A stretch of DNA of 52,735 bases, the filler included, from Jimgerdemannia flammicorona (Eukaryota), in assembly GCA_003990765.1 (NCBI GenBank). It is 2 parts of 2 records of this genome, joined end to end, with 100 filler letters (N's around TTAATTAATTAA, not from the genome) between each part and the next. Parts side by side here need not be neighbours in the genome. Positions count along the whole stretch, not along the records: positions 1 to 26,320 come from RBNJ01000736.1; 1 more part is not named here. One strand, given 5' to 3'. Below the pieces are notes generated by a model that made no database searches, was not told the DNA's origin, and saw nothing but the letters and a program-made list of their open reading frames with translations. Below, piece after piece: positions 1 through 50,386 of the stretch. Position 1 is the stretch's first letter. The number at the start of each line of letters is the position of its first letter. A program made the translations under genes and the position numbers.

Positions 1-843
1 GCTGAACAGAATTGCCGGTAGATAGATATCCCAGTTTAGTTGATCTCTGGTTCTACTGAGACCTCGCTTGATGGTCTGGTTCATTCGTTCAGTGAGTCCA
101 TTTGCCTGTGGGTGATAGGCTGTTGTTGGTCGTAGCTTGATCTTGAAGTTGCTTGCAAAGGTCTTCATGGCTTGGTTGACAAATTCTCGGCCTTGGTCGG
201 TAATGATTTCCTTGGGCACACCATGGCGGCTGAAGATTTCATCATACAGGATACCAATAATTGTCTGGGCATCAGCAGTCTTGATGGCAAAGGCTTTGGG
301 CCATTTTGTCAGGTGGTCTTCGATGGTGAGGATGTAGCGTCTTCCTTGGCTGGTTACTGGTAGGGGTCCAATAATGTCTATTCCCAGTCTTTGAAAGGCT
401 CCAGCTAGTGCTACGATTGGTATTAATGGTGCTCTGTCAGTAGGCTTTTGTCAGTATCTTTGGCAGGTATCACATTGTTGAATGTGCATTGAAATTTGTT
501 TGCTCATCTTGGGCCACCAGTATCGCTTCTTGATTCTTGCAATTGTGGCACCAATTCCTCGGTGTGCATTTTGGTTATGATTTGTTGTCAGGATCTTCAA
601 TATTTCTTCTTCTCTTGGAACTCGGGTGTACTGCTCTCCCTCTACTCTCCAAAGTTCGCCATCACCTTCTTGGAATTTCTTGAAATTCCTTTGGATAAAC
701 AACTTGTGGGCAGGTTGAATTCCTTTCTTGAAGCTTCTATGGTGCAGGCTCCAGATGAGGGCGAGGTGCAATTCTTGGTTCATTTGGGCGAGCGGGAAGT
801 AGCCTTCTCTTGTGGGGGCTCCTTCCCTTCTTGTTGGTTTCAC
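1..843 (-). pseudogene. E1 integrase (HHCC zinc finger and DDE core, runs off window)
   Basis: HNQNAHRG...YWWPKM...CDTCQ, followed by GIDIIGPLP, ITDQGREF and AYHPQANGLTERMN. Confidence 0.93.
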
Positions 844-2030: not shown

Positions 2031-2679
2031 TATGTGTTGTTGTTCAAATTCAATCAGATGATGTGGTGTTTGGTAGGGTCATTGTCGGATTGGTCTTACA
2101 TCTCTAGTATGTATAGGGTGTTCTCCGTATTGATATGGTGGGAAGTTATCATATGTAGTAGTAAATATATCTTTGTACTCCTCTATCAACTCCTGTATCT
2201 GTTGTTGCTGGTCCTTGGTCAGAGTTGTCTCGATGTCGATGGCTTTGATTGCTGAATTTGCTGAGTCTTCCTCCCTGGTACCATCAGTCTCACTGGAGAG
2301 GGCTTGCCGTTTCCTAAGAATTCGAAGACTTCTTCCTCATAGGTGTCTATCAGTGGTTCGAAATATCCCAGTGTTGTTCCCTTGGGGATAGTTATCACTT
2401 CGAAACCCAAGTTTCTGATAGGGATGTGGATCAGTGACATCTGGTCATGAATTCGTTCTTCAGCCAGGAGGATGTGGTGTTCCTTTTGAAGCTCCAGTGA
2501 TGGTACAAATATCAAGTTGTTTGTTTCTACTGGTAGGTGCACATCTAGGCCTTTTTGCTGGTAGGGCTATAGGAGGATGTCTTCTCTTGCTTGGATTGGG
2601 CAGCAGATATGGGGTCTCATTTGTCGGAATTGAGCAACTATTGCTAAATGAACCTCGATAGGTGGTGTCTGTAGATTTC

Positions 2680-3090
2680 TATTGGTGCTTCCAAAGCCTT
2701 CTTGTCCTCTGTTGGTATCTTCTAGTTGGTCTACCTCTTGGATGGTCAGCTGTGATGTCTTGATAAATAGGATTTGGCAGATGGCTTCCATAGGACTGAA
2801 GAATTGGCTGGTTTTACTAGAATTATGGATAATGGCCTTTAAGGGACCTCGGTAGTCCTGATCGATAACTCCTCCTTCTACTGTGACTCCTTTGGTTGCC
2901 CATGAGGATCTTGAGGCCAATTGTCTATAATACCCAGGTGGTATAGTGAGTGCAATCTGTAGGTCAAAAGTCCTGGTACTTCTGGGTCGGATTCTTGCTT
3001 GGTAGGGGAGGCAGAGGTCATAACCAACTGATCCTTCTGTTTGTGCAAGAGGTGGCCCTGCCCAGGGGGAAAGCAGCTTGACCTGGATAA
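2680..3090 (-). CDS. dut: dUTPase domain within E1 pol (between PR and RT)
   Basis: All five dUTPase motifs: GYDL, RSS, GVIDQDYRG, ICQ, RGQEGFGST. Confidence 0.93.
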
Positions 3091-4189
3091 TTGATTGAGC
3101 TTTGAGAAATGGTGCTTCAGCTGTTGCCATTGTAGGTGAGAAGTCTATGCACTCTAGTTTGAAGAAAGACCAGTGAGCTCCTGTCTTTGAGTTTCTTGTG
3201 TAATTGAATTCAGTCTTTCCTAGAGGGTCCAGAGCTTCCATAAGGATGAAGGCAAGGTTGACACCTTCTTTTCCTTGATGAGGGTGGCAGTACCAGCGAA
3301 TGATGGCAAGAACTTCCAATGGTAGGCCCCAGATAGAGGTCTTGCTCTTGAACTTGCAATCTCCTTCATAGTTGATTTCTTTGCACTTCTGACAGATCCA
3401 GTGAATTCGAGGTTCTTAAAGGGTGGGATCCTTTCTCTTGACTCGACTCTTGTAGACATCTTCGCTGAGGTGAACATCTCGATGTTCACACTAGTAGCAG
3501 GTAAAGGTTTTTCCGCAATCACAATGTCCCTTCTTGACAAAGTCTTCATTTCGCTGTTTGACCTCCCTACTGGTAGGAAATCTCTTCCGATACTTGTCAT
3601 AGGTGGGCTGTGTGATCTGGAAGGCCCGGGTGATAGTGTAAGAGCTGTTGCTTTCTCCTTCGATAGTAAGGGACTCGAATGTTTGGCAGGTGAGGATCTT
3701 CTGTCCTTCCTTATAGGTCTTCTTGAAGGTCTTCGGGATTGGAGGTTGTATTCGGCTGTGGGATGGTGCTTGCTTCAATTCGTCCTTGTCAACAATTTCT
3801 GGCATTGGAACCTTCTTGAGATCCAGAATTCGGCAATTGCTGCAATCATCTCTTTGTGAGTGGAAGCTGATGAAATGTTCACATATGCCTCGACGAAAGG
3901 CTCGCATGATCTGATTTTCTACCAGTGGTGGTGGTGGTTGAGCAGAAGGTCCTGCAAACTCAAGTGCTGTCCTTGCATTAATGGCTCTATCAATGCTTTC
4001 TTCCAGACCTTCAACACTAATAACTCCAATGAAAGAGTCTTCTTGTTCACTTTCTTGGTTCCTTGGGGCATCGAAATCACTTCCTAGTTCTTGTAGAAAA
4101 TTGGCCTCGCTTCCATCCTCAGTAGTGGTGGGGGTGTCACCATGTTCTTGCAATTCTGTTTCTGAGGCTTGATTTGTCCTTTTAGATGA

Positions 4190-5091: not shown

Positions 5092-6400
5092 CTATGTCAC
5101 CTTGGATGGAAAAGCCTCGAAGTATAGGTAGATGTCATCTTCTTGACCATGGAGCCAGGCTGCTTCTTCTTCCATTTCCTGAGTCTCCTCATCTACCTGA
5201 AAGAGGTTGACATTTCTGTCATTGGACTGGGTAGATTGGTTCCTTGGACAATTCCTCTGGATGTGGCCTTGATTTCCGCAGTTGAAGCAGGTGGGACCAT
5301 AGGAACCAGTCGCTGATGAGGCTGTAGTTGCAGCTGGTAGTGTGGGGGCAGGACCTCTGTTGTCTTGTTGCTGGTAGTCTGGTCTGTTATCATGATGGTA
5401 GTCTTGTTGTCTTCTACCTTGGTTGTTCAGCTGGGCAACTGTAATGGCCAGGTCCTTCATTTGCTTGGTGAGCATTGTCATGGGGTCTTCTTGAACTCTT
5501 GATGGTTGCTGCTGCTGTGGTTGCCTGAATGGAGTCAGATTTGTGGGTGCTGGTCTGTTCTCATAGTTGGCTATCTGGGCTCTGAGGAAGGCATTCTCTT
5601 GCTCCATGGTTGTTCCTTGGGTCCTTGGGGTTTCAGCTTGGATTGGCTTGGGATAGCCTTGTACTTGTTGTGCTGGTCTATAATCTGCTTCCCAACATCC
5701 TTGTGCTCCAGCAACTTGCTGTTCAATGTTTCGATATCCCATCCTGATAACTTGCCTTTGGAGTTCTGGGTATAAGCCATTGAGGAAGGTTGAAGCTAGA
5801 GCCAGTTGGACTACTGGTTGAAGGTTCGCCTTGATCATTTGAGCTTGAATCCGATGGTAGAAACTCTTGGGAGTTTCATTGGCAGTTTGGCTCATGTAGG
5901 TCAAAGCCTCCTGTGCTTCTTGTTGGTGCTCGAATCCATTGAACTGGGCACAGAGCCAGGCTTTGTGAATCATGTATCTTGCTACATGGTTTCTATCAGG
6001 TTGAAGGCTGTCATTTAGTTCCTCTGCATGGATTTCTCCTCTGGCTTGCTTGGCTTGATTATACCTCTGTAGGGCTGGTCCTCTCAAGAGTGACTCCACG
6101 ATTCTGAGTTTTCTTGCAGCATCCCATTGTTTGGCGGCTGCTTGAACTTCAATTTCTCCAAAGAATTCCTTGATATCTTCATTGTCTGCACCATGGAACT
6201 TCTGAAGGTAGCTTATGTCTGGCTTGTCTTTACTATCTGAGTATTGTTCAGGGGTGGGGGATCTGGCGGATCCTCGGGGTGGTGGGGAAGGTGGTGGTGC
6301 TAGTACTTGATGATCTAGTGGTGCTGGCAGAGGGTGGTGTCTTGGTGAGGGTGAGAGTAATCTGGCTCTTCTAATTAATGCTGGGGTTGAAGTCCTGGGT
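5092..6400 (-). CDS. gag: E1 gag (capsid plus CCHC knuckle); Pro/Ser-rich N-terminal extension may reach ~7050
   Basis: KFHGADNEDIKEFF...LRGPA; SQTANETPKSFYHRI; FLNGL; CFNCGNQGHIQRNC. Confidence 0.88.
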
Positions 6401-7095
6401 AGTGGTAGAGATCTTCTGATTGACTGGTGATAGTGGCGAGGTGTGAGTGACCAGGGTACTGAAGTTCGAGCAACTGATGGTGGGAGTGGACTGATATAAC
6501 TGATAGTGAGATCATCTGCCCCTTGCTGTTGTGAAGTAGTGAGGTCTTATTCATCTGGTTGCTGCTGTGGGTCAGTGTCACTGTCTGGATAATAGTATAG
6601 GTTGAATTCGTCCCTTTGATGGTCTGATCCCCAATCGTCGTCTTGCTCTGGTTGATATGGATGGTAGTCCTCTTCTCCCTCTGATGTTTCAAAGTATATC
6701 CAGTCTAGTGGAGTTACTCGAGTAACAACAGTAGTTATGTAGTCGCTTCTGTCTGAGTTCTTCCTATGGATAAGGGTCTGATACTCCTCAGGAATATCCT
6801 CTTCTTCTTCTTGGCCTAAGTTTTGGATCTGAAGGGGCGGTTCTGGTTGTCCTCTGAGTCATCTCCTTTCTCTTGAAGTCAAACCGTAATCTGGGTCACT
6901 TCTTTCTTCAGATTCGGTTTCCTGGCTACTGATGTTGAATAGGGTCCTGACAGCTGTTCTGACAAGGGTGTGGGCTTTCTTTTCTGCTGAAGAGGGCTGT
7001 TGCTGCCCCTGGTTTGGTTGCTGACTTGGTCCTGCTAAGTTCTCCACTGTAGATAGCTGGGTTCTTGAGCCAAATGGTCAAGTCTTTTGAAAACT

Positions 7096-7113
7096 TTCCC
7101 AGTTAAGCCCCCA
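7096..7113 (-). promoter_or_regulatory. Primer binding site of E1, tRNA-Pro-like
   Basis: Minus strand TGGGGGCTTAACTGGGAA 3 nt after the LTR end; resembles the tRNA-Pro PBS TGGGGGCTC..CCGGGA. Confidence 0.75.
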
Positions 7114-7655
7114 AAATGTGGCATTGGTTATGCATAATGAACTTCGACTGCACAGCTCAATGTGTGCCACTTGGTGAAGCATGCGATGTATAACTGAAGA
7201 CTTTGGTGACGTTCATGGGTCGATGGTCACGTGACAGGTCATTTGATTCATGTGGTAATTGATAACAGTGGGAAAACGGAGGTTGATGGCTCGCTCGTCC
7301 GTCTTGGTTAACTTGAAAGATTTCTGGCGGTCGCTTGGGTCTTTGGCAGTGGCCTTGTATCCTTTGGCTGGGTAACTTGGGTTTCCGGGTCTTGAATCTC
7401 GAATGGCGGTCGAATGCGCAGTCTGAATGCATGGTCTGAATCCTTGGCTGGATCCTTGGGTTTCTTGGTTTTCTGGGTCTTGAATCTCAAATGGCGGTCT
7501 GAATGCACAGTGGTCGGGTAACTTTTTCTTTCTGTGGCAAGAGAAAATTCTTTAACTCAAACTTCTGAGCGATCCATTGCTCTAGGTTGTTATCTTGTTC
7601 TTAGAATTTATCTGGTCTCTTGGAGGTGGTGTGTTTTCTCTGTAAAACTGTCTGA

Positions 7656-7710
7656 CTGAGGTTTATTTACTCTAAGAATATGGGTTATTTATACAAGTTT
7701 GCTAGCTATG
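7656..7710 (-). promoter_or_regulatory. LTR TATA box and adjacent poly(A)-signal block
   Basis: Minus strand CTTGTATAAATAACCC...TAAATAAACCTCAG; near-identical at 11317, 17528 and 25709. Confidence 0.7.
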
Positions 7711-7827
7711 GGGGAGGGGGCACGACTAAGGCTAAGGTATACTATATTGTGGCAAACTTCACTATGCTATTGGCTTGCACAATGCGAGGTGTAGGCTATT
7801 GTTTACTACGGATTGGGTTGTACGGGA

Positions 7828-8290
7828 TAGCAATGCTGGATTCGGACTTGCTGACCAAAACGGTGAAAATGGTGGTACTGGATAGTAATGCTGGAAATGG
7901 TTGTGCTGAGTAGCAATGCTGGATTCGAACTTGCTGACTTACTGACATGGATGGATATGGATACAACGATTGTTGCCAGAAATGGTTGTGGAGGGTAGCA
8001 ACGCTGGATTCGGACTTGCTGACAAAAATGCTGAAAATGGTGGCACTGGGTAGCAATGCTGGATTCGGACTTGCTGACTTGCTGACATGGACGGATACGG
8101 ATATGACGATTGTTGCCAGAAACAGTTGTGGAGGGTAGCAATGCTGGATTCGGACTTGCTGACAAAAACACTGAAAACGGTGGCACTGGGTAGCAATGCT
8201 GGATTCGGATGAGCTGACATGATACAGTGATTGTCGCCAGAAACAGTTGTGGAGGGTGGCAATGCTGAAAATGGACTTGCTGACAAAAGC
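7828..8290. repeat. Higher-order tandem repeat in LTR U3 (core TAGCAATGCTGGATTCGGACTTGCTGAC)
   Basis: About 6 full and 2 partial cores with two alternating, reused spacers (~140 bp higher-order unit). Confidence 0.9.
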
Positions 8291-8318
8291 TTGATTCTCA
8301 CAGCTGATGGGCAGTACT

Positions 8319-9289
8319 CTAGAGGGAATAGTAGTACCCTTCATCCACGGCAGACAAATCTTGCAGGGTTGCAATTTCTTCTTCATCATATCTCTCCTCA
8401 AAGGGGGGGAGTGCCGGCCAAGAGGTGAGGGGGTAGAAAAGTGGCCAGTCATCTTCAACAACATTCTCCAACCCTTGAACAGCTTGAATGCAGACAGAGG
8501 ACTGGTAGACTCTCTGTTGCTCCTCTTCTTCAAGACTCGTCAGTTTCAGTATCAGAGGGGGTTTCTTCAGAGGCAGGGTCTTGGAGTTCTTGGGCTTCTT
8601 CTTCAAAGACAGGGACCTCTTGGGCTTCTTGATTCGGTTCCCAAATGATGAGATCTGACAGGGTGGTGGGTGGTTGGAGTGGCTCCAACGGGTGCTTCTA
8701 TGGTAATGGGTGGTCCTTCAAATATCTCCATAAGACTCATTAGATGACCTTGATGGTTGTCTCAGAGTAGGGTGGTGTGGAAACCTGGCTGAGTAGGTTT
8801 GATTTGTTGGCTTCCTACAGCAACCCGGTTGCTACCAGTAGAGTTGGCTACTTCTGATTCTATCCAGTCTGCATCTTCAGTTGAGAGACGGGCAAGACTG
8901 CCAGCTGTTACTCCTTGCAAGTGTGCTATAGCCCAGGGAATATGGTGGAAGATTTGGTGGACATGGAGGGCTCTCTTGATTAGCCAGCTGGTGGTTAACA
9001 TTTTGGCAATAAGGTCTTCCCGGTCATCTTCTTGAGTCTCATTGCGAAGGCGGTGTCCAATTTCATAGTCATGCCAGAGGGTCATTCATTTGGTAGTATC
9101 TTTGAGCTGTTGGGTCATTATATACCAGTAGTTGATGAAGTGTCCAAGGTCCTCAGTGTAGAATTTCAAGTGTTCGGAAGTATCTGGGCACCAGATGACC
9201 TTCTTGATAGCTTCAAAGATCAGGGTCTTTGGGCCAGGCAAAGGGGTAGAGCAGCAGGAGGTCTGGTTGGATTGGCGAATGGGAGGCAT
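8319..9289 (-). pseudogene. Accessory ORF inside E1 LTR (unknown conserved domain plus acidic tail)
   Basis: MPPIRQ...IFEAIKKVIW...YEIGHRL...RALHVHQIF...AIAHLQGVT...; two TGA stops and probable frameshifts; homologues at 11641, ~18310, 33415 and 41945. Confidence 0.75.
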
Positions 9290-9496
9290 TGTGTGGTGGT
9301 TACTTGGTTCTTTGGTGCCGATCCCTGAGGCAGAGTATGGTTCCTTAAATAATGTGGTCTTCATTTTGGCTCAGATCATCTTGTCTTCTTTTGGGATGAT
9401 CACCTAATGGGTCAGGCTGTCTATTTGATTGTCACACCATTATGTCGTCTGATCTTAGCAGTCATCGGTACTCCATTGTCAATTGTGTACATCACA

Positions 9497-11136
9497 ATAT
9501 ATAATTTATAAGAAAAGTTTTTAGTCATAGTTATAGCTCTCAAAAAATAGTATTATTTCTTATATGATAATTTTTTATAATATCTCTTACTCTATAATAT
9601 AGTCAAATTTATCTGTATCATATTATAGAATAAGAAATATAAATTACTATACCCTTAAATATATTTAGTCAATACTAATCTATAAATAAGTATATTAAAT
9701 AAAGATCATTCTATTTTTAATATAGAGATTAAATATATATCAGATAAGATTAACTAAATAATAAATAAATTTTTAAGATATAGAAAACAAACTTATTTAT
9801 TTTATTAAAGTTATTAGTAATATTATTTAACTCATTAAAGATAATTATCAGATGAATAATCTATTTCCAAATTTTCTTTAGTACTATTAAAATCTAAACT
9901 CTGAAGTATCTAGAGTTATAAAAAGAATAATTAAGAGATTTATATATTGTGATAAACTTATTTATAGAGTTTATAAATAAGTAGTAATATCCAGAAATAA
10001 TAATCTCAGACTTAAGATTATTTATATAATATTTCAGATATAGAAAAATTTTAGTTTAATAAAATCTATAATCTTATCTCTCAAAAATATTATTAATAAA
10101 ATATTTAAAGATATTAAAATCTTTATAGTCTTCTTTAATATATATATTAAAAATTCTAAAGTAGTAATAAGCTATTAGCTAGTTTATATAACTTTTTTCA
10201 ATTTAATCTATAACTAAAAATTATATTATAATAGACTTTATTATATAACTTTTTAAAATTAGAAATAATTAGAATATTATTATTATAGTTATAGACTATC
10301 TTAGTAAATAAATCTACTTTATACTAATAAAAATTACTGCAATAGTCTTTGAAACTACTGAAATATTTTTTAACTTTATATTTAGATTATACAAATAATA
10401 TATTAAGTAGTTTAGTTTTCAATTATATAAAGTTTATAAGTAACTTTTAAAGTTATTTTTTTATTTTTTATATATCAAGTTAAAATTCTTCTATAATTTA
10501 TATATTACTCTAAATATTAATAAAACTCTAAAGCAGATACTTAGTATCTTTAGTAGATCTTAATAAAAAAAAAACTTCCTTCTTTTTAAATTATAAATAA
10601 TACTTAAGAACTTTAAGTACTATTGAAATATTGAGATAATAATTTGATATATTAATATATAATTATACTATTCTATCAGTTTTATATTATTCATTAGTAA
10701 TATATGAAATATGCAATATATAACTTTAATAAAATTAACCTTTCTTTTACAATAAAGATTATGAGCCCCACTAGTACTAAGTGACGATAATAAAAAAAAA
10801 AATACCTTTTTAATATATATTATACTAAAAATATCAAGTAATAATCAGTCTAGCAATATAAGATATACCAATTATAAATGTTCTAGTAATAATAGGAGTA
10901 GTTCTTATTAGTTTTAGTTATTAGTATAAATATGAATCCTAATATTGAGAAATATTTTATATGTATATCATTTGAGTATTCTATATATCAAATCTTATAA
11001 AAGAATATAGCTTAGCAAAGTATATAAAGCTATAAGTACAAATTCAAGATTATGATACTGTAAATAATCACTAAGTATTATATAAGATTATATTTATATA
11101 GTCAAATTTATAAAAAAAAGCTCATAATATATACAA
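9497..11136. other. Extremely AT-rich, probably heavily C->T-decayed repeat relic
   Basis: Sharp compositional boundaries, TA-rich, almost no CpG, no ORF in the track. Confidence 0.45.
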
Positions 11137-11603
11137 TATAACATAGTGGACGCTTACTCTTGAAAGTACATCAGATTTCTGTATCTTGAAAACTTGACTG
11201 TTCTGACTCTTGCAGAGTCTCTTGGGTTGCAGGAGAGGGTGGGTAAGTTCGAAGTGTATCTGCCTGCTGGCTTACTAGTTCCTTTGCTATCTCTTTGCTT
11301 TTGAACTATTTCGATCTGAGGTTTATTCACTCGAAGATACTAGGTTATTTATACAAGTTTGCTAGCTATGAGATGGTTACTGGGTTATGTGGCTAAGTTA
11401 TGAGTCATTTAACACTTTGCGAAATATTTCACCAATTGCAAAATACTATACTATATCAAGAAGCTCGATCTCGCACTTTGTGAAATATTTTGCAAGTAGT
11501 GAAATTGAGGACTGCAAACTATGTGGCTATACTACTTTGGGACTAGGTACAATCAAGTATTTGTTCCTTATTTCCTTCTTTCGAATCTGGTTATACCATC
11601 ACA
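11137..11603 (-). repeat. 3' LTR of E2
   Basis: Direct repeat of 17349-17815; preceded on the minus strand by the purine tract AAGAGGAAG (~11605-11613). Confidence 0.93.
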
Positions 11604-11640
11604 ACTTCCTCTTGAATAGATGATCTCATCCTTGAAGCAT

Positions 11641-12078
11641 CTATTCAAACTCCCAGACTTCAATGGTCTGTATGGTCTTGTATTGTGCAATTTGTTGCAT
11701 TACTGTTTCCAAATGGTGTTGCCTGACTCAGTTGAAGTCTGAGGGAGTCACTCCTCACAGGTGGGCTAGTGCTGGTTTATCCTCTTGAAATAGCTTGTGG
11801 ATTCTCTTAGCAATGGTAATCTGGAAATAGGAGAGCTGGCATTCTGCGATCCAATTTTCTTTGGTCATTTCTGGGTCTTGGTTGAGTACTTGGGCAAGTT
11901 TGAAGTACTCTTAAAATTCGTTTTGATGCTGATAGGCCTTGAAGTGTGAGATTTGAGAGAGATGAGTCTGTATAATGCTTTGGATACTATCATAAGACTC
12001 CTCTATCGTCAGAGGCTCAGTGGTATATCATTGTCTCTCGATGGCTCTTTGGGCAGCACTAGTGATCTTGAGTACCAT
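11641..12078 (-). pseudogene. E2 ORF3 (145 aa, env position), accessory protein of unknown function
   Basis: ATG about 13 nt after the pol stop; MVLKITSAAQRAIE...YFKLAQVL...IAKRIHKLF...ALAHL*GVT...; 4 internal stops, all readable as CGA/CAA->TGA/TAA. Confidence 0.8.
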
Positions 12079-12090: not shown

Positions 12091-14680
12091 GTTACTGGCT
12101 ATGATATTTCTTGAGTCAGTTTCAGTGAATGGTGGTGGGGATTATTGTGCCTGAGGGCTTTTGTAATCAGAAAGTGGTCCCTTTTATATCTTGCACTAGG
12201 TAAGGTCCTTTCCACTTGGGCTTCAGTTTTCATGACCAAGAAGCTTCTACCATGTTCTGGTATATCAGGACTTCATCTCCTATCTTAATAATCTCCAGGG
12301 GCTTGTGGATCTTTTCCGCATTGCTCCATTGTAGTGCTTGTGCCTTGATTATGTAATTCTCTGCCTTTTTCCTAATTTGATGTAATCTTCATATCTCTAT
12401 GTCCACATACTTCCAGACTGCATCATTATTTGCTGACAAATTTTCACTAGAACTTTCTTCTCTGAACAGTATCTCCCAGAGAGTAAAGTGGGTACTTTGT
12501 GATCTGATGTCCTGGAGAGCGAATAATGCTATTGGCAGATAGTGATCCCAGTTTTCATAGTTATCACAGATCTTGGTGATAACATTCTTGAGGGTCTTGT
12601 TGGTTCTTTCTGCTTGTCCATTTCCTTAGGGGTGATAGGCTGTGGTCCAAATGCACTGGATCTTGTACTTCTTATAGAGAACCTCAAAGAGCTGGTTCAC
12701 AAATTCTGTTCCTCTATCTGTAGTTACTTGTGTTGGTGTCTTGAACCAGCAGATAATTTCCTTGTGGAAGAAATCAGCGATTGACTGTGTATTGGCTTCC
12801 TTGAGGAGTCCTGCTTCTATCCACTTCATAAAAAGGTCTAAGATGACAATGATATATCTGTTACCAGTCAGGTTCAAGGGTAGAGGACCGATTACATCCA
12901 TTGCTATATGGGCAAATAGTACTGGTTTTATGCATGCTGATCCTGGGGCCTGGTTTCATTGGTCTTGTTTCTGTTTCTGGTATTTATTACAGGTTCTGAC
13001 AAATTGTCTGATATCTTCTTCCATTCCAGGCCACCACATGGTTCTTCTTACTTTGTCATATGTATTTGTTTCTCCTATGTGGCCTTGTTCATGTACTTCT
13101 TTCATTACTTGATTCTTCTAGTGTTCGGAGATGACTAATTGTTGTCCTTTCTTGAGTATTTCTCCATCAGTTTTGAATTGTTTCTATGTCCGATTAATAA
13201 TTGTTTTTGTCCATTCTTCCAGATACAGGGGCATCTTTCACTGCCCCAGATAGCTGATGATTTCATAGTACAGCTCCCTATTCATGGTGATTTTATAGGG
13301 GTGAGGTCCTTCAGAGTGTCCGTAAGAGGGCATTGGCATTGGCATTGGTTCTTCTGGGGCAGTGAGTGATTGTGGCATCATATGCTTGCAGCTTCATGAA
13401 CCATCGGGCATAGATTCCTTTGGGTTCACTGGTGGTGAGCAACTAGATGAGTGCTGAGTAGTCTGTCTGGATAGTGAAGTGTCTTCCCGCTAGGTAAGAG
13501 TGGAACTTCTCTATAGCCCAGATGACTGCAAGACATTCTAGCTTGTATGACTCATAGGACTGCTCCACTCCACAAGTATCTCGGCTGAGATAGGCTACTA
13601 CATACTTGGTGCCATTCTTCTTCTGTGCAAGGACAGCTCCAAGTCCCATTGCACTGGCATCTGTCTGTAGAATAAATTCTCGTATCCAGTCAGGTCTTCT
13701 CAAGATTGGGGCCTGGGTCAGCCTGATCTTGAGTTCATCAAAGGCTAGTTGCTGTTGTTGTGTCCACTAGAACTTGATCTCTTTTCTGAACAGATTGTAG
13801 ATAGGGCTGGCAATGTGGGAGAATCTTCGAATAAATCTCCTGTAATAGGATGCTAGTCCCATGAAGGCTCAGGCTTCAGTGACACTAGTAGGTACCGGAT
13901 ATGCTGCTATTGCCTTGATCTTTGTGAGATCTGTGTGTGTTCCTTTATGGTTGATGATGTGTCCGAGGTATGCGATTTCTTCTTCTCCAAATTTGCATTT
14001 CTTGGGCTTGATGTAGAGACCATTTTTGTGAAGCATTCTGAGGATTTCCTTGATATATTCCAAGTACTCCTTGGCTGTTCGGCTGAAGATGATCATATTA
14101 TCCACATATACCATCATCTATTTTTTCATAACATCTCTGAAGATGCTATTCATTATTTGCTGGAAGCTTGATGGTGCATTGTACATTCCAAAGGGCATGT
14201 GGAGATAAACATAGGTTCCATCAGGAGTAATGAAGGTTGATCTTTTACTGGCTTCAGGTATAAGGCCAATTTGGTAGAATCCTGAGAATAGATCCAGATT
14301 GGTGTAAAATTATGATTTATTCCCCAGCATGATAAGAATGTCACCAATGTTGGGCAATGGTTGTCTATCCTTCTCTGTGACCTCATTGAGTCTTCTATAG
14401 TCTGTGTAAAGTCTTGGTGCAAATTCTCCTGGTCAGCTTCCTTTCTTTGATACAAGAACAATAAGTGAAGACCAAGGGCTGCTGGCTTCCTTGATGATAC
14501 CAGATTCCTCCATTACCTTGATTTCAGTCTTGAGCCATTCTCTGTATGCTGGCAGAATGGGGCAGGCTTTTTGATAGATTGGTTTCGCATCTCTAGTATT
14601 GATGTTATGATAGTATAAGGGTTTCTTAGTCTTGATGTCCTTGAAATCTGTAGCCAGTACATCTTCAAATGTATGCAAGA
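12091..14680 (-). pseudogene. E2 RT, RNase H and integrase with GPY/F motif
   Basis: ASSPWSS, MPFGMYNAP, VYVDN(D)MII, LQTDAS, MDVIGPLP, TDRGTEF, KWKGPY. Confidence 0.93.
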
Positions 14681-14794
14681 GGTTCTGCAACTCCTTCCTG
14701 AGGGGAAAGTTCTTTCCGATTATATAAGTATGTTTGTCTTGGCTTTCCTCCTTCTTGTGCTCCAATTCTGTAATCTTGGTTGCTATGAGGACTC

Positions 14795-15200
14795 CTCTTT
14801 CTGTAGAGCCGAATCCAGCTCTTCCTTGCTGAGTTTGTCTGATGTTTGTGACTTCCTTGATTCTTGGGTTAAGGACAGGTAGGATGAGCATTTGTGCCAG
14901 CCGATCCTTCTTCTTTACTTCAAATGGGATTGTTGGATTATGATTCCTGGTGAGGAGGAGGATTTCTCCTGTATAGTCTGAATCAATGACTCCTCCTTCT
15001 ATGGATATTTCACTTTTCGCTAAGCTGCTCCTTGTCTTGAGGATTCCGACATGACTTAGTGGGATGGTTACTTTAATTCCTGTTCCCAGCATAGTAGTGG
15101 TTTGTGGTTCGATAATTGTGTGTATTATGGTAGATAGATCCATTCCTGCTGCATTCTCCGATTTGTACTGTGGCAAGACTACATCAGGGTGGATCCTTCA
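14795..15200 (-). CDS. dut: dUTPase domain of E2 (between PR and RT)
   Basis: AAGMDL, RSSLA, GVIDSDYTGEI, RLAQM, GRAGFGST. Confidence 0.93.
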
Positions 15201-17348: not shown

Positions 17349-17815
17349 TGTAATGTAGCAGACACTTACTCTTAAAAGTACATTGGATTTCAGTATCTTG
17401 AAAACTTGACTGTTCTGACTCTCACAGAGTCTCTTGAGTTACAGGGGAGAGTGGGTGAGTTCGAAGTGTATCTGCCCATAGGCTTACTAGTTCCTTTGCT
17501 ATCTCTTTGCTTTTGAACTATTTTAATCTGAGGTTTATTCACTTGAAGATACTGGGTTATTTATACAAGTTTGCTAGCTATGAGATAGTTACTGGGTTAT
17601 GTGGCTAAGTTATGAGGCATTTAACACTTTGCGAAATATTTTGCTAGTTGTGAAATGCTATACTATATTGAGAAGCTCAATCTCGCACTTTGTGAAATAT
17701 TTCACAAGTAGCGAAATTGAGGACTGCTAACTATGTGGCTATACTACTTTGAGACTGGGTATGATCAAGTGTTTATTCCCTATTTCCTTCTTCCGAATCT
17801 GGCTATACCATCACA
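17349..17815 (-). repeat. 5' LTR of E2
   Basis: tgtaa...tcaca termini; direct repeat of 11137-11603. Confidence 0.93.
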
Positions 17816-18059
17816 GCAATAATAACTTATAAGTTATATGAGACTCTATATAATAATTATATATAAGTATTTGTATCAAATTAATTTTACCTAAAATCTC
17901 AGCTATTCAATTTATGAAATAAGTCTAAGAAGAGTATCTACAAATACACTAATTATATTGATAATCTAGTGAATCAAGTAAATTTCCTCAGTATATCTGC
18001 AGATTACATTGATAATGAAGATAAGATTATAGTACTCATAAGAGAACTTCTAAATATAT

Positions 18060-20116
18060 TGTGATATATATAACTGATAATACTGAAATAAGGAATAATG
18101 ATAACAGATCTTATAATATCAGATGATAACTTCAATCTTATAATATAATAAATAGATAATACTATCTGATGACTCTTTTAACTTATCAAGTGATCTAACC
18201 AAAAGAAGCAATGATAATTCAAGCTAAAATGAAGACTAAATTATTTAAAGAATTGAGATCTAGTATATTAAGAAGAATCAGAATATATATATAAGAATAT
18301 AATATCTCCTTCCTACCTCTCTAACTAGACTTTCTACTATAATACTTCTTTATCAAAACTGAAGAGTCTTGTCCTCAAAGCCATCAAAATGGCTATCTGG
18401 TACCTAGACACCACTAAGTATCTGAACTTCTATACTGAAGATCTTGGATATTTTATTAACTACTACTATATAATAACTTTGTAATACAAGAATACTACTG
18501 ACTGAATAGACCTCTGACATAACTATGAAATTGGATACTGCCTCTGTAATAAACCACAAGAAGATGACCAAGAAGATCTTATTACCAAATTATTAACCAC
18601 CAACTGGCTGATTATGGGAGTTCTTTATATCTACCAAATCGTCTATTATGTACTTTAGGCTATAGCTTACTTATAAGGAGTTACTGATAGAAATATAGTC
18701 TACCTCACTACTGAAGAAGTCAATTGGAAAGAAGTTGAAGATGTTAATTATATTAAGAGCAACAGTATTACTGTAAGAAGTTAACAAACTGAATCTACTC
18801 TGCAAGGCTTTTATATAACTTCTCTCTGATATAACCATCAAGGCTATCTAATGAGTCTTATGGAAATCTTTGAAGGACTACTTATTACTATTGAAGTACC
18901 TACAAGAGCTACCACAACTACCCCCTACTCTGTTAGTTATATGTCATATTACATTATATAAAAACTGAACTAAGAAGTCTCAAAAACTCCTATTCAAAAA
19001 GAAAAAGAACACTAAGACTACCCAAACTGAGGAATCCCAAGAAAATAAATAAAGAATCTACCAGTCTTCAGTCTGCCTTCAAGCTATGTAAGAGTTAGAA
19101 AACATCATTAAAGATAACTGGTCACTATTCTATCCCCTCACCTCTTGGTCAGTACTTTCTCTCTTTAAAGAGTGATATGATGAAATCACAATCTCATAAG
19201 GTGATTTTCTTGTTACTGGTAAAGTATATAATGCCTTTTAAGATAGAGATCAATATTCTTTATCAGTAATACAGAATAAAGGCATTTCAGCCTTATTCAA
19301 TTTAGTTAATATCACTCTCTATATAAGTATATTATAGTTTTGCCAAATATAGAATAGCTCTCCTATTACCTAAACATTCTTTGCCAGCAGTGCAGATCAA
19401 GAGTGTTCTAATCTTACCCCATTGATATAGTCTTTACTACTGATATACTACTACTAGCAAACCAATAGTATATCCAGACCTTATCATTAGAGTATAGTAG
19501 AAATATATATATACTCCTAAAGACAAGAGTGAATATATCTCAGTCAGATAGTTTAAAGTAAAAAGAATTTACAGAGAAACACACTACCTTCAAAAGTTGA
19601 GAGATTACTCTTACCAACTCAGAAATTGATACAAAATACAAACCACTACCTCAAAAATCATTATAAAACTCAAGATACAAATTGTACTGTTATAAAAATT
19701 GCCACAAAATTTAAGATATAAGTCAGTTAAGACTGTTATAAGAAATTTAAGATACAAGGCCTTAGAAATCAGATACAAGATTCAAGAAACAATAGAACAC
19801 TATTCAGAAATATATAGAATAATCACCAATATATTAAGAAGCTCAGAAAATCTGCAAAAACAATTGCCAGAAATCTTATACTATTTTGCTATTCCAAATA
19901 TCCAATAATATGACCAATGACTTGCAATATACAAACTTCAATAATATGGGAACTTTAACTTGATACAAATGAGAAATATAAACAAATTGAATAGTAGTTG
20001 AACTGAATATTGAGCTAGAACATTATCAGATAAAAAGATAAATAATATATAAGATAACCAGTTAACTAAGTAGTATATCAAGTAGTATATTCTACGAATA
20101 AGACATATATATTATA
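18060..20116 (+). repeat. Old, decayed LTR of an E1-related subfamily in opposite orientation (right end approximate)
   Basis: Starts tgtgatatatataactgataa, matching the E1 LTR minus-strand start tgtgatgtacacaattgacaa; contains the LTR-ORF homologue. Confidence 0.7.
18310..19230 (+). pseudogene. Decayed copy of the LTR-encoded accessory ORF
   Basis: LVLKAIKMAIWYLDTTKYLNFYTEDLGYFINY...YEIG...EDDQEDLITK...IYQSSVCLQA...WSLFYPLTSW. Confidence 0.75.
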
Positions 20117-20801: not shown

Positions 20802-21440
20802 TGTGAAGTTGTATCAGAAGACTGGCTTATGGCAAGTTTTCTTAAGGCTCTCTGAGAATATGAGTTTTTCTTCAAAAGGTAGCAAAGTTCTTTCTTAAAC
20901 TTTGGCAGCAAATCTTCAGGCATATCTGGCAAGCAAACCATGGCTTTGTATTGGAAAGTAGACCAGAGTAAAAAGTAAGCTCACAATCTCCTAGCAGTGG
21001 TTATAGAGTTCCTCTCAAAGTAGAGAAGACAGACTTATCTTTTGCTTTGAATTTTGAACTCTTCTTTATATTAAAAAGCAAACCAGAGTTGAAATATATT
21101 CTGACTCTTATCTCTGGGGTATTTTATATATTTGTGGTTGCTATCAGATTACTATGTTGCTAATTATAAATTGTTATTTATGGCAGGTGTGCTGATTCAG
21201 TACAGGTGTACTGATTTATTACAGATGTACAGATTCGGCACAATTATACCTTATCTGGTAGTCTGGCTATTTATACAGTTTTTTATAGCAATGGTTACTG
21301 TGTCTGGTTACTATACTATGTTTTCATATCATCTGACTAGGTTATAATTTGAGTGGTATATTTTAGTTTATCAAATCAGCCCCCACTAAAAGAGGGTCTA
21401 ATAAGAGATTATAGTTGAGGCCTCATATATAATGAGTACA
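20802..21440 (-). repeat. Putative 5' LTR of another element inserted into the YR-type element; start of its internal region at ~20120-20800
   Basis: tgtg...gtaca termini; TGG 1 nt after its minus-strand end; TATA-like tatataaaatacccc at ~21116-21130; truncates the RT ORF. Confidence 0.4.
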
Positions 21441-24190
21441 ATGGCCATTGACAGAGAGACACCATGATTGAGTTGAGTTTGCTGACAGAGAGGCAAGCCT
21501 TCATTATGATAGAATTGAGTTTGATGCCTAAGAAGATGAGTGATATTGAAGTTTTATCTACTTTATGATCTTGGATAGACCAACTGAGGGCCTGGCAAAG
21601 GAATAGAAATGAATTGAGGTCAGCAGTAGCAGCCTCTGTGAGTGATAAAGAAACTAATAAATAATTATCAATATAGTATATTAGTACCTGGAGGCTATGC
21701 TGAGATATCATCCAAGCTAGTAATTTGGTAAAGAAATTGAAAAGAAATAGTAAGGATGATATACCAAATAGTGCAAAGTAGTTGAAGTAGAACTGTCCTG
21801 ACCAAGTGAATCTGAGCAACTTCCAATTGATAGGATAGATGAGAAGGTGATGATATATATTGGCTAGATTGATTTTACATAATAGACAACTTTTCTCAAA
21901 ATGTTGAACAAGATTGAGAGCATTGTTGAAGCAAACATATGAAAGATAAAATATCTCATAGTCAATGCCAGCATTAACAGAACTCCTATTGTGAGGCCAG
22001 AAAAGATCATGAATGCACCACCAGACAGTAGAAGAATTCTTCTTAGAAACAGCACTTAGAAGGAATAAGTAGAAGCTCAAAAATAGTAGAGAGAAAAAGG
22101 GGCCATATATATGACCAGCTGCAATCTTATATATGATATCAGAAGAGATAGTGTCTGGATGATCTAGAGTCAAATGATGATTATAAGTAAAGAGATAGAA
22201 CCAAGGGCCATCTAATTCCAGAGAATGTCTTGGGTGATAGCAGCAATAACAGCCAGAGAAACAGATTGGTCAGGATAGAACTGAAGTTTGCAAGCCCATA
22301 TATTAGTATAGAGCATGGTGGAAAGTGGGGGAAAATGATGTAGAATTGATGAAATGGTATTATTAAAAAGTAATGTAATCAGTTATTAAAGAAAAGAATT
22401 AGGAGTAGAAGGAGGAATGGATATGACTGAGGTGGCGGTGAGTTCTTAGAGCTAGAACAGAGAGTTGTGAGGATAGTAGAGCCACAGATGATCAGTACTA
22501 TATCAAGTGCAGATATGGGCATATAAATATTCATTCTATTGACAACTAAATTCCTTAGCTGGAGACCCATTGGCTATAATGTAGTTGAAGGTATAACAGA
22601 AGGAAGGACCCAATAAACTGTTAGATATCTGAGAAATAGAGCTGCTGGCAAAGTTAGCAAAGTATGGGGAGTTGCAAAGTTTACCAGAAGGTTTTGAGTT
22701 AGTGACTAGCATACAGAGACATTGGTATAAACTGAGTACCATAAAGAGGTCAGGGTTATGGCATGCCCACAGATGGCACCATAATAGAGAAATATCATCA
22801 TTTGTAATCTCTGCCAAATGTTAAGTGTGAAAGAAACATAGTAGTCAGGAAAAGCAGACCAAAATAAAGATATCAATAGTAAAATGAAGTCAGTGATATA
22901 GATAAAGAATGGAGTGGGTTCTGTAAGCCTGAGATATATGTTTTAAAGGATGCTAAAATAGGTGAGGAGGGCCATAAGGAAGGAGAAAATATCAGAATGT
23001 TCCTTCAAGATAGACAGAGGTTTCTGCAGGATAACTTGAGTACCAGAGTCATTGACAGACTCAATAAACTGAGCTTCAGAAGAGGATCCAGAAGATGTAA
23101 TATTGTGCTCCAGCAGATGATACAAAGATATAACTAGAAAAGAGTTATTGACAACTGATACTAATAAGCATTGGTTGATGTGAATATATTTAAGCAAAAG
23201 ATTCATTCTGCAAATAATAGTATAGAAGACAGTAGTGAAAGAGAGAGGGGTTAAAGAGAACTCACCATAAGGGATACCAGATGGACCATAGCTGCCAAAA
23301 GGGGTAGAGGTGAGGGGAAATGTCAGAAAAGTGAGCACAGATTCAATAGCAGTGGACAAAGAAATGACAGCACAATTAATGAAGGATTGGTCTATAATCA
23401 GAATGGTAGAGTGGACAGAGAAATCAGAGAGACCGGGAGTAATGACTGATGGGGCAGGAACTAGACCAAAAGAAAGGACAGAGGAATGTGAATGAAGTAG
23501 CTAAAAAAGTTCATTGAAGTAATAATCTTGAGCAGTAGAACATTTGTAAAGTAGTGTGATACTGGTCTCTATAGAAGGATTTATAGGAAGTGGTAGACTT
23601 GTAGATAGATTACAGAGAAGTCAGTGAACTACTACAAATAGAAGTCTTAGATATAGTATAGATGGAAGGGTATGTTGAATGATTGGGAGAAGTAGAGGTA
23701 ATATCATTAGGGAGGCTTTCAAGATAAAGAATAAAGGTGCTAATATTGGGGTTGTTATTATTGAGATCATCTTATAAGAAATAAAGCACTCATTCAATAA
23801 AGAGAATATTATGGCAGAAGAGACAGGCTACAGAATCTAACTCATATTGCTCTTTTGATATATTAGAAGAATCATGCTGACACAAAGAGCAGGAGTTAAT
23901 GGCAAGCACTATATGAATTAGTAATGTTTATAACAAATGTATTTGAATAAAAGCAAGTGAAAATATATATAAAGATGAGTGACTATAGAAGATCAAAGAG
24001 TAGTAATTAAAGAAGAGAAAACCAAAGAATAAAGTATATATAATCATAATTACCAAATAGGGAAATATATGTCCACTAATGAAAATCTGAGTGAAACAAG
24101 TATTACCTGAAACAAATAAGGCATTTGGTATCAGAACATTAGCACTAAGAACATTCATGCATTTATTGATCTATAGCCTTAAATAAGTCT
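21441..24190 (-). mobile_element. Truncated DIRS/Ngaro-type (tyrosine recombinase) retrotransposon: gag-like region plus RT
   Basis: RT reads GHIYGPF...AVSKK...IHDLFWP..SVNAGI...WKLLRFTWSGQFYF...FG...YYIDNYL; upstream decayed CYTFN...YAHIC finger; no YR seen. Confidence 0.8.
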
Positions 24191-24199
24191 ACTTAATAA

Positions 24200-24886
24200 T
24201 TATAGTGGACCAGTAGAGTACCAGACTGAAGGTGATCTTTGAAGCTGGAGTAGATACTATATCAGTGAGACCTTCTGATTAATATAGAGTGATTAGGTGG
24301 TAGGTGTCACTCTTGTCTACTTTTGGTAATTTATGTGATTAGGCCCCAGTTATTGGGAGTGATTGGGGGTCTGAGGCTACTTAGATTAGGTATCTTAGCT
24401 ATACTTAACTAGAACTGAGAACAGATATATGTAGTAATATAATTGAGACCCATAAGCTTGAGTAATAGAGTATTGGAGGTCACCTCCCATCTTACATATA
24501 AGTTCTCTACTCACCTCATTATAGAGAACCAGATTCTATCTACTATTCTGTACTTTGAGAGAAGGTTTTCTTTACCTATCACTCTTCTTGAAGTAGTAGG
24601 GGCTATGCAAATTGACTTAAACATAGTCTTATACATACATATGTTAGAGTTTTGGACATATATCTTTAGCATATGGTTATTACTCCCTAGTAGTAGGAAG
24701 AGCATGATATACAGAATAAGATACAGATAATTTTGCCCTACAGTATCTGATATAATTGAGCTACTGAATAATAGCTAGCCTAGGTTCAATTGAAGTAGAG
24801 TGCTCAGTGGGTAGTGGGAGAGGGTTTTGGTCTATATTGTCTAGGTTCTCTTTTAATAAAATCTGTGGGACTTTGAGTCTATTAAA
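24200..24886 (+). mobile_element. Old 5'-truncated copy of the 1.2 kb poly(A) retroposon (family R1)
   Basis: Aligns to ~28475-29160 with many transitions; ends aataaa...gagtctattaaa. Confidence 0.8.
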
Positions 24887-24897: not shown

Positions 24898-26320
24898 TGT
24901 GACATTGGTTATATATAATGAACTTTGACTGCACGGCTCAATATGTCACAGATGACGCGTGCAATGTATATAACTGAAGGCATTGGTGACATTTCGCGGG
25001 TTGTTGGTCATGTAACGGGTCGTTCGATTCGTGCGATAATAATAATAGTGGGAGATCGATTGTTCGATGGGGAGGTCGTTCGGTTGTTCAATGGCTCAGG
25101 ACGTCGATGGCTCGATTGTTTAGTGGAAAAGATGTTGTTGCTAACAGAGGGCGGTTATTATGCTGGCTAAGTTTCCTGGTGGCGATTAACTTGTTGGCAA
25201 ACTCGGCGATGACGGTTTTGGCTTTAAGCGGTTTGTGGCGCAGTAGGGAATCGTTCGGGTCAATGGTTCAGTCGAACGTTCGTTCTTTAACTTGAGGGCG
25301 GGTTTACTGGGGTACTTGGCAGTTGTTCTTATATCTCGGCAGGTCCTAGGCTGCGGTCTTGTTTGGCTGGGTATCCTTGGGTTCCTTGGTTTTCTGGGTC
25401 TTGAATCTCGAATGGCGGTCTGAATGCATGGAGGTCCGAATGCATGGCGGTTGTGTCTTGAATCCTTGGCTGGGTAACTTGGGTTTCTGGGTCTTGAATC
25501 CTTGGCTTTCCGGGTCTTGAATGGCAGCGGTCGGTCTTTGGCGGTCTAGTGTGGCTTTCCTTAGCGGCGGGTCTTGAATGTTTTCTTTCTTTCCATGGCA
25601 AGAGAAAATTCTTTAACTCAAACCTCGAGCAATCGTTGCTCTAGTTATCTTGTTCTCAGAATTTATCCAGTCTCTTGAAGGCAGTGGTTATTACTCAAAA
25701 CCAGTTGACTGAGGTTTATTCACTCTAAGAATATGGGTTATTTATACAAGTTTGCTAGCTATGAGGGGGCGCGACTAAGGCTAAGGTATACTACGTTGTG
25801 GCAAACTTCGCTATGCTATTGGCTTGCATGATGTGAAGGGCTGACTTGCTGACAAGATGCTGAAAATGGTTGCACTGGATAGCAATGCTGGATTCGGTTG
25901 TGCTGGGTAGCAACGCTGGATTCGGACTTGCTGACTTGCTGACACGGACAGATATGGATGTGGTGATTGTTGCCAGAAGTGGTTGTGGAGGGTAGCAATG
26001 CTGAAAACGGACTTGCTGACAAAATGCTGAAAACGGTGGTACTGGGTAGCAATGCTGGATTCAGATGAGCTGACATGATTGCTGATTGTTGCCAGAAACG
26101 GTTGTGGGGGGTGGCAACGCTGAAAACAGATGCTGACTAAAAGCTTGGTTCTCATGGCTGATAGGTGGTACTCTAGAGGGAATAGTACCATTTGTCCGCG
26201 GTGGGCAAATCTTGCTGGGTTGCGATTTCTTCTTCATCATATCTCTCCTCAAAAGGGGGAAGCGCCGGCCAAGAGGTGAGGGGGTAGAAAAGTGGCCAGT
26301 CATCTTCAACAACATTCTCC
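24898..26320 (-). repeat. Less decayed E1-family LTR (solo or 3' LTR), truncated by the gap
   Basis: Starts tgtgacattgg like 7117; same TATA block, U3 repeats and LTR-ORF tail; many CpGs retained; no PBS on its left. Confidence 0.9.
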
Positions 26321-26681: not shown

Positions 26682-27666
26682 ATTGAGCAATGTATTTTAT
26701 CTTAAAGTTTTAAACTAAATCTTGAGAGTTCTTGAGGTTGACTAGTGGTTTCCAGATAGTATCATATTCAGAGTAACCCATCTACTTGACTAGATATTCA
26801 GGATAGCAGTAGCAAATTTATTTGTCAAGAATTTTCTCAGCTTTATACTTGATATGATCTTTAATAATCATAGAGACAGAAGGCTTAGAAATTCAACCAG
26901 GGTAGGGCAGTAACTGGTTCTAGGTCTTGAGGTGTGACATATAAAAGACTGGGTATACTCTTATGATTTCAGATAGCTTGAAGTAGTAGAAGAATGCAGA
27001 GACTTGTTCAGTAATCTCAAAAGGTTCAATATACTTGGGTTGAAACTTGTTTGAAGGGCAGTTAACTTGAGATTGTATCTTGAGGTTCTCAGTAGACAGT
27101 AGGACTTGATCTCTAACAGTATAAGTGATATTATGGCATTTCTTATCAGTATACTTGGCTTGATACTGTTGAGCTTGAAGATTTATAGTAGCAATCTTAA
27201 GTAGTTTGTCCATTTTGTCTATAAGGTTCTTGGCAGTTGGGACTTATATTTAACTGCTTTTCTTGAAAGAGAATAGACTTACAGGGGTCTCAGGATTTTA
27301 ACTATAAAGTAACCAGAAAGGGAAAATACCAGTAGATGATTGGATGGTATTGTTATATACAAACTCCACATAAGTCAGGTAGTGGTCCCAATTATCTTGC
27401 TCATAAGAAATATAGTTTCTAAGTATTTGTTCTAGAGTTCTGTTCATATGCTCAGTTTGTCCATCAGTTTGTGAGTGAAAGACAGTAGATATAGCCAATT
27501 GGGTTCCTAGGGTCTTGAAGAGAGTTTGCCAGAAGTGACTGATAAACTTAGAGTCATAATCACTAACAATTACTCATAGTAGACCATAGTGATAGAAGAT
27601 GGACTTGAAGAAAATTCTTATAATCTCAGGTACAGTAGTATTAGTAGTGGTTGGTTCAGTAACTAT

Positions 27667-33392: not shown

Positions 33393-33414
33393 ACAACTAT
33401 AACTACCAAGATCT

Positions 33415-44032: not shown

Positions 44033-44062
44033 CTTAGTAGCAGTGGTTAAGTTATACTTAGC

Positions 44063-50384: not shown

Positions 50385-50386
<2 letters not shown>

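Follow-up and report, generated by a model that had tools for sequence, protein, structure and literature searches.

Remnant of a probable accessory gene within the U3 region of a Ty3/Gypsy long terminal repeat in Jimgerdemannia flammicorona

The stretch of Jimgerdemannia flammicorona DNA analyzed here (52,735 nt including filler, from GenBank assembly GCA_003990765.1; hereafter the window) is a nest of Ty3/Gypsy elements with AT-rich spacers of 16-30% GC between them. Reverse transcriptase (RT), RNase H, integrase and zinc-knuckle gag domains were found in it with Pfam. One element, E1, runs on the minus strand and exits the window at base 1, within its integrase, leaving its integrase C-terminus and 3' long terminal repeat (LTR) off-window. 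At the other end of E1 lies an LTR-type unit, which adjoins a leader of 570 nt and then gag. This unit contains the subject of this report, a decayed open reading frame (ORF) of about 325 codons at 8319-9289. The frame begins with MPPIRQ at the ATG at 9289 and has the same sense as E1 gag and pol. The features of E1 and of the ORF are as follows.

1-450, minus strand: integrase core of E1 (Pfam)
2570-3415, minus strand: dUTPase domain of E1 (Pfam)
5095-6546, minus strand: gag of E1, with zf-CCHC (Pfam)
8319-9289, minus strand: accessory ORF pseudogene, about 325 codons, ATG at 9289 and TAG at 8321-8319
9289 to about 8660, minus strand: frame A of the ORF pseudogene
about 8673 to 8536, minus strand: frame B of the ORF pseudogene
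8531-8319, minus strand: frame C of the ORF pseudogene, which holds the TAG stop
9086-9088, minus strand: in-frame TGA at codon 68
8762-8764, minus strand: in-frame TGA at codon 176
9344-9351, minus strand: TATA-like box TATTTAAG, starting 62 nt upstream of the ORF ATG

The condition of the window copy is best seen against P0004, an intact protein of 325 amino acids (aa) that is 75% identical to the window ORF. Because P0004 aligns in three frames (aa 1-225 at 9289-8621, aa 210-260 at 8673-8536 and aa 265-314 at 8531-8382, the last with 96% identity), the window ORF carries two frameshifts. At codon 68 the TGA corresponds to Arg in P0004 and to Gln in a second relative, P0002, while at codon 176 it corresponds to Arg in P0004 and to CGA in other copies. 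For comparison with further copies, contigs of four public runs (X1-X4) were aligned to positions 6800-9700 at a likeness of at least 85%. One X1 contig and two X2 contigs have 8764 A>G, which restores CGA (Arg) at codon 176, and related public copies have an extra 5 nt at 8531, 6 nt at 8652 or 11 nt at 8654 relative to the window. All differences between window and contigs within the ORF are transitions, spread across all three codon positions; this is decay of the window copy and not selection. Two in-frame TGA stops together with two frameshifts make the window copy a dead gene. An earlier interpretation made by eye from the DNA (the sequence-only reading) had described a frame of about 320 codons in the gag-pol sense, in U3 and upstream of the TATA box TATAAATA; it was right about sense and position, but the frame is not open.

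The unit that carries the ORF has the organization of an LTR. Its ends read TGTGATG at 9496-9490 and CCACA at 7121-7117, giving TG...CA termini with short inverted ends. Two related copies were found elsewhere in the window, as the sequence-only reading had proposed.

7117-9496, minus strand: E1 5' LTR-type unit of 2380 bp, termini TGTGATG...AATGCCACA
7693-7686, minus strand: TATA box motif TATAAATA of the E1 LTR
7667-7662, minus strand: AATAAA motif of the E1 LTR
7656-7710, minus strand: conserved 55-bp LTR core containing TATAAATA and AATAAA, 89% identical to both LTRs of a second element, E2
7816-8288, minus strand: U3 tandem repeats with units of about 140 bp, located after the ORF and before the TATA box (self-matches)
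18060 to about 19270, plus strand: LTR copy 2, starting TGTGAT, heavily C>T/G>A mutated
18302-19190, plus strand: ORF remnant in copy 2 with many stops, the whole frame region being kept
24898-26320, minus strand: LTR copy 3, 5'-truncated, with the same CACA end followed by unrelated sequence

As TATAAATA and AATAAA both lie downstream of the ORF, the segment from 9496 to about 7660 is U3 (about 1.8 kb, followed by about 0.5 kb of R/U5), and the ORF is located within U3. The tandem repeats were also resolved by TRF (period 140, 2.3 copies, 90% matches at 7887-8209). The equivalents of the 55-bp core in E2 are at 11316-11370 and 17528-17582; this core is 89% identical between E1 and E2, although their pol proteins are just 40-43% identical. 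Public contigs of other families match the 55-bp core alone, with loose ends on both sides (runs X1, X2 and X4).

Copy 2 differs from E1 mainly in one direction: from E1 to copy 2 there are 66 C>T and 38 G>A substitutions versus 14 T>C and 11 A>G, which is the pattern of repeat-directed C-to-T mutation. The sequences upstream of E1 and copy 2 are no more alike than expected by chance (transition-tolerant local alignment score of 84, versus 74+-8 with a maximum of 99.5 in 200 shuffles), and the homology of the two copies thus begins at the LTR terminus. Copy 3 retains the last 45 or so codons of the ORF (26319-26185). The two LTRs of E2 begin with TGTGATGG, the same terminus as that of the E1 LTR. 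The E1 LTR is a discrete mobile unit with defined termini.

The public contigs locate the same boundary. Between the bins 9419-9515 and 9516-9612, summed contig depth in X1 drops from 157 to 2.2, and in X2-X4 nothing is left (0), a collapse at 9496 in all four runs. X1 contains 520 related contigs, in which the ORF is multi-copy along with the LTR. Beyond 9496, three X1 contigs and one X2 contig share a single continuation of 24 nt that is purine-rich (...GCAAGGGGCAGA, minus strand) and stands immediately 5' of TGTGATG; one contig of 330 nt runs from this flank through the LTR start and 98 nt into the ORF. The flank has no match in the window at up to three mismatches. Its absence fits, because the flank would be the off-window junction of pol, polypurine tract (PPT) and 3' LTR in full-length relatives.

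Proteins related to the ORF exist outside the window, and several of them are intact. P0002 and P0003 were obtained from 36 candidates of a word-indexed search, and P0004 was the one relative among 357 candidates in a search of longer proteins; its label in the source is "jgi: hypothetical protein" and nothing further. When P0004 was compared by phmmer with 1.84 billion representatives, 10 proteins were found at E<=1e-3 and five of these at E<=1e-10. Three are intact distant relatives.

P0007: 214 aa, 35% identity to P0004, E-value 8.6e-21
P0008: 342 aa, 34% identity to P0004, E-value 4.1e-20
P0009: 247 aa, 31% identity to P0004, E-value 5e-15

A metagenome scan added one locus, L001 (one confirmed of 223 pattern matches), with an intact ORF of 292 codons that is 36% identical to P0004 and is preceded by TATAAAAG 80 nt 5' of its ATG. 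The 1535-bp contig of L001 has an imperfect direct repeat (GTCAGGCGGAAC...CAGAACA...) near both ends, at 168-210 and 1479-1525, which may be an LTR repeat structure. Overall, the intact homologues of 214-342 aa align at 31-36% identity with E-values of 5e-15 to 5e-30. Frames that have stayed open over 214-342 codons while only about one-third of their residues still agree are hard to account for unless the protein is under selection. Blocks conserved over the first 210 or so residues are DLGHF, WH[DE]YEIGH, AKK.HQ.FRH.P and NPDQ.LQ...FEGPPI. The proteins P0010-P0012 are short fragments and were excluded from the family alignments. P0015 (1810 aa, E-value 4.2e-4, seven stretches aligned to the acidic tail) was set aside as a probable compositional match. 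A search for fused forms of 600-2000 aa with family profile A2 gave none among 7654 candidates, which is weak evidence.

A family hidden Markov model (HMM) built without the window sequence was used to scan the whole window in six frames. It recovered the E1 ORF (E-value 2.2e-94) and copy 2 (1.4e-54), and the next unrelated match scored 3.9 bits. By sequence comparison, the proteins form a real family that retrotransposons carry and that had no name before. The accessory protein family suggested earlier is thus genuine, and it has intact members both close to the window ORF and far from it.

The second element, E2, carries a homologue in a different position.

11677-12075, minus strand: decayed homologue, E2 ORF3, internal between pol and the PPT
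11149-11603, minus strand: E2 3' LTR of 455 bp, starting TGTGATGG
17361-17815, minus strand: E2 5' LTR, 90% identical to the E2 3' LTR
42110-42313, plus strand: the "E6 LTR ORF", in the 3' LTR (41942-42363) of element 33414-42363

E2 pol ends at about 12094, and ORF3 starts about there in a different frame and runs through the PPT (AAGAGGAAGT), which adjoins the start of the 3' LTR. At 11604-11640 (minus strand), the ORF3 frame reads the purine tract as K-R-K-L, and its TGA stop overlaps the LTR start. The alignment of E2 ORF3 with the E1 frame, previously drawn by eye, is statistically significant: E2 ORF3 with its stops read as X (P0005) matches the family profile over 131 columns in hhalign (probability 92.6%, E-value 4.7e-7), matches P0004 in BLASTP (E-value 4e-4) and is detected by the family HMM built without window sequence (E-value 8.4e-6). 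Family identity to E2 ORF3 is 22-33%. As E2 ORF3 lies outside the LTR, what the two elements have in common is a gene that follows all others on the genomic RNA, and only in the E1 lineage does this gene lie in the LTR.

The sequence-only reading had also placed the ORF in a third lineage, on the basis of 42110-42313. Compared with the family, this frame gave a BLASTP E-value of 4.1, an hhalign E-value of 0.17 (probability 0.4%) and an HMM E-value of 0.55, none of them significant; heavy mutation of element 33414-42363 could hide a true relation. The family is therefore placed in E1 and E2 but not in the third lineage. The idea that it was kept across chromovirus and non-chromovirus lineages is likewise unsupported, given that the chromovirus-like third member is not significant and E2 has no chromodomain match after its integrase.

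E1 and E2 share 43% identity in RNase H, 41% in integrase, 40% in RT and 24% in gag. For RNase H and integrase the other window elements are more distant (26-31%); RT does not set E1 and E2 apart, as other window elements reach 36-40%. Judged by these identities, E1 and E2 are distinct, deeply diverged lineages. At least three Gypsy elements of the window, E1, E2 and the element at 43628-52081, have a dUTPase domain that separates protease from RT (Pfam E-values of 1.2e-27 to 2e-16).

Comparison with known proteins and folds gave no assignment. No Pfam family matched P0004, and among nine family members there were just two Pfam matches, each to a single member (E-values 0.044-0.046). A sequence profile search of the PDB gave no match at E<=1. 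The ESM Atlas yielded no usable match for P0004, and for P0008 only leads below 0.9. A structure model from the single sequence was poor (predicted local distance difference test score, pLDDT, of 43.2). An AlphaFold model from an alignment of nine sequences reached a mean pLDDT of 58.9, with helices of the N-terminal domain between residues 20 and 151 (pLDDT 60-91) and a low-confidence C-terminal half. With Foldseek nothing was found at E<=0.001 (best E-values of 0.6 in the PDB and 0.32 in BFVD), and VIA-align in its wide search found none of 48161 chains at Z>=5 (best Z 3.4). These null results in fold searches do not establish the fold as new. An already described domain had been named as something to look for, and the searches of Pfam, the PDB and BFVD gave no match to one. 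A reading of the His/Asp/Glu motifs (DLGHF, WH[DE]YEIGH, HQIFRH) as an HD domain or a zincin was dropped, as it had no Pfam or fold support.

In five family proteins the maximum Kyte-Doolittle mean over 19 residues is 0.59-1.07, which means that there is no hydrophobic segment; the protein is therefore not env-like. The tails have net charges of -13 to -25. The product is a protein of about 325 aa with a helical N-terminal domain of about 150 residues, a conserved linker and an acidic disordered tail.

The arrangement in E1 resembles that of certain retroviral genes. The nef genes of human and simian immunodeficiency viruses (HIV/SIV), the sag gene of mouse mammary tumor virus (MMTV), and bel2/bet and the end of tas in foamy viruses are 3' accessory genes that overlap U3 in part or in full. 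Foamy virus Tas is a regulator with an acidic activation region and its own promoter. To our knowledge, a protein gene inside an LTR is an arrangement otherwise known mainly from retroviruses. Like nef, sag and bel, the E1 gene is last on the RNA, in the gag-pol sense and in U3, and so would be duplicated in both LTRs; as with the retroviral U3 genes, the U3 of E1 is unusually long because it is coding. Unlike Nef, Sag and the others, the E1 protein shows no likeness to them in sequence or fold (no Pfam family, and no BFVD match at the Foldseek threshold). In further contrast to the retroviral cases, E1 is a Ty3/Gypsy retrotransposon without env, and the entire ORF is inside the LTR.

Extra genes are also familiar in LTR retrotransposons. 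Athila/Tat elements and errantiviruses carry ORF3 or env-like genes. The E1 and E2 genes resemble such additional ORFs in being an extra gene after pol without an enzymatic domain, and E2 ORF3 is typical of them; the gene of the E1 lineage differs in lying beyond the PPT and inside the LTR, and in not being env-like. An "add. ORF" of unknown function is drawn for fungal Gypsy elements (PMC2864245), the Fig. 3 legend and section 5 of that article being silent on the position and nature of these ORFs, and LTR elements of bdelloid rotifers are described as capturing extra ORFs (PMC5408684). Section 5 of PMC2864245 also covers dUTPase-bearing fungal Gypsy elements, namely Postia PosPlaTy3, those of Phanerochaete and Tuber Tmt1. 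Like these, E1, E2 and the element at 43628-52081 carry a dUTPase, and the order protease-dUTPase-RT is among the layouts given in PMC2864245, whose section 5 makes no mention of a gene inside the LTR of such elements. Full-text searches of mainly open-access literature turned up no report of a protein-coding frame within a fungal Gypsy LTR. The case described here is an extra ORF of an LTR retrotransposon that encodes an unnamed family and that is placed, with good indirect support, in U3, as in some retroviruses.

The explanation that best accounts for these data, to which we assign a probability of roughly 70%, is that 8319-9289 is the remnant of a real accessory gene that is last on the RNA of a dUTPase-bearing Ty3/Gypsy lineage and that lies in U3 in E1. 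A chance ORF in a long LTR would explain why the window copy is broken and why no Pfam, PDB or fold match was obtained, but it is extremely improbable given the intact distant homologues, the intact P0004 at 75% identity and the conserved blocks that run through the whole family. It is also unlikely that the LTR boundary has been misplaced, such that the true E1 LTR would comprise only the 1.2 kb or so that follow the ORF, itself an internal ORF3. Under such a reading the ORF would lie upstream of E1 only because elements were arrayed in tandem or recombined (pol-ORF3-LTR-gag-pol) and the array was cut short at 9496. In its favor, an internal position of just this kind is seen in E2, the 3' end of E1 is off-window, and copy 3 holds only the part downstream of codon 280 or so. 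Against it, E1 and copy 2 start at the same base (TGTGAT) with flanks no more alike than chance, and the E1 terminus matches that of the E2 LTRs. Multi-copy depth stops at 9496 in every run, and the common continuation past this point is a purine tract and not the window flanks. Copy 3 breaks off at 26320, within the ORF instead of at its end, and therefore looks truncated.

Somewhat less improbable, yet still doubtful, is that the gene is a passenger, a host gene captured by the ancestor of E1 and E2 that does not serve the element and may serve the host where it is intact. The lack of similarity to known retroelement proteins would suit a captured gene, as would the reported capture of extra ORFs by LTR retrotransposons (PMC5408684) and the fact that P0007-P0009 were seen without genomic context. 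However, the gene has the same last-on-RNA position in two lineages with pol 40-43% identical, and it has diverged about as far (22-33% identity to E2) as gag has (24%). The family is tiny, with 10 matches among the 1.84 billion representatives, and the gene is multi-copy with the LTR in the 520 X1 contigs, with no single-copy host orthologue seen.

Several observations weigh against an accessory gene in U3 and should be set beside the evidence for it. No one element has been seen with the ORF at both ends, the E1 3' LTR being off-window. Just two studies supplied the public contigs, all of them short (80-792 nt). P0004, P0007-P0009 and L001 were seen without genomic context, and L001 is not shown to be an LTR. 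At the inner end of the E1 LTR, CACA is followed by TTT and TGGGGGCTTAACTGGG, any primer binding site there being putative. Transversions between E1 and copy 2 fall at codon positions 1/2/3 in the numbers 10/14/23 (525 nt), a position bias that is marginal (chi-square 5.66, 2 df, p about 0.06) and suggestive only. The functional suggestion made below is drawn solely from composition and position, with no fold or family match behind it.

If 8319-9289 is the remnant of an accessory gene, the following history would connect E1 and E2. The ancestor of a dUTPase-bearing Gypsy clade would have had a 3'-terminal accessory gene, with no further gene after it on the genomic RNA. The plus-strand primer site of E2 would have come after the gene, leaving a conventional ORF3 between pol and the PPT, while in the E1 lineage the LTR boundary would have come to lie 207 nt upstream of the ATG, placing the whole gene within U3. 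As the E1 LTR starts upstream of the gene, reverse transcription would copy the gene into both LTRs; we infer a copy of the ORF in the 3' LTR on this basis, and the gene of the E1 lineage would also be left behind in solo LTRs. A gene shared by E1 and E2, given pol proteins that are 40-43% identical, is compatible with vertical descent.

The TATA-like box TATTTAAG is a candidate promoter of the ORF itself, and its TATTTAA is kept in copy 2 at 18242-18248. Because of this conservation, and because TATAAAAG precedes the ATG of L001, we think it more likely that the ORF is expressed from its own promoter than from a spliced subgenomic RNA. If expression were driven by TATTTAAG, each LTR would be a separate transcription unit. 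As for function, a helical binding domain joined to an acidic tail with hydrophobic patches leads us to suggest, quite tentatively, a regulator or adaptor in which the helical domain would bind and the acidic tail would recruit host machinery. A possible target would be the LTR promoter downstream of the 140-bp repeats, which would be activated. More speculative again is the idea of the LTR as a self-contained cassette, in which a trans-acting factor could be made from each LTR, whether 5', 3' or one of the many solo LTRs that remain once elements are lost. An ancestral ORF3 would then have been moved into U3 when the plus-strand priming site shifted, and the factor would activate the family promoter via the 140-bp repeats or blunt host silencing.

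The window has the following further features.

14436-15197, minus strand: dUTPase domain (Pfam)
46331-46579, plus strand: dUTPase domain of element 43628-52081 (Pfam)
31486-31881, minus strand: fourth dUTPase match (tblastn)

The element at 43628-52081 (plus strand) is a chromovirus, since a chromodomain follows its integrase SH3 domain (49400-50398, plus strand, frame 1; Pfam E-value 1.3e-8), and it is the only chromodomain bearer found in the window. Its terminal repeats are oddly ordered, with A at 43628-44036 and B at 44063-45245 at one end, and B' at 50398-51578 and A' at 51673-52081 at the other. Block B recurs at 28070-29192, within the integrase of a related element at 26720-33145, and also at 24199-24886. 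There are two options for the ends of 43628-52081: either its LTR is B+A, or B is a separate solo LTR. At 21409-22269 (minus strand) there is an open frame of 286 codons with RT-like motifs by eye (YIDN, FLGIKL) and a GC skew of 0.35-0.37; it has no Pfam match at E<=0.001 and may be a mutated retroelement of another type. The sequences at 9497-11148 and 17816-18059 are very AT-rich (down to 16% GC) and lie between the two head-to-head E1-type LTR copies. They are one stretch split by the insertion of E2, and this stretch is probably an older element erased by C-to-T mutation.

Retrotransposon LTRs usually count as non-coding and are masked by annotation pipelines. Such masking would hide a protein gene located wholly in U3, together with any copies that solo LTRs carry. 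In E2 the gene precedes the PPT and in E1 it follows, a natural pair for showing how an LTR boundary can cross a gene, which is the step assumed for retroviral nef, sag and bel. If the cassette idea were true, solo LTRs would keep an accessory gene present and active well after the coding elements had vanished, and a retrovirus-style regulatory gene would have evolved independently in a fungal retrotransposon. An unnamed family without detectable relatives of known function is a possible candidate for a new kind of retroelement regulator, here residing in a genome with repeat-directed C-to-T mutation.

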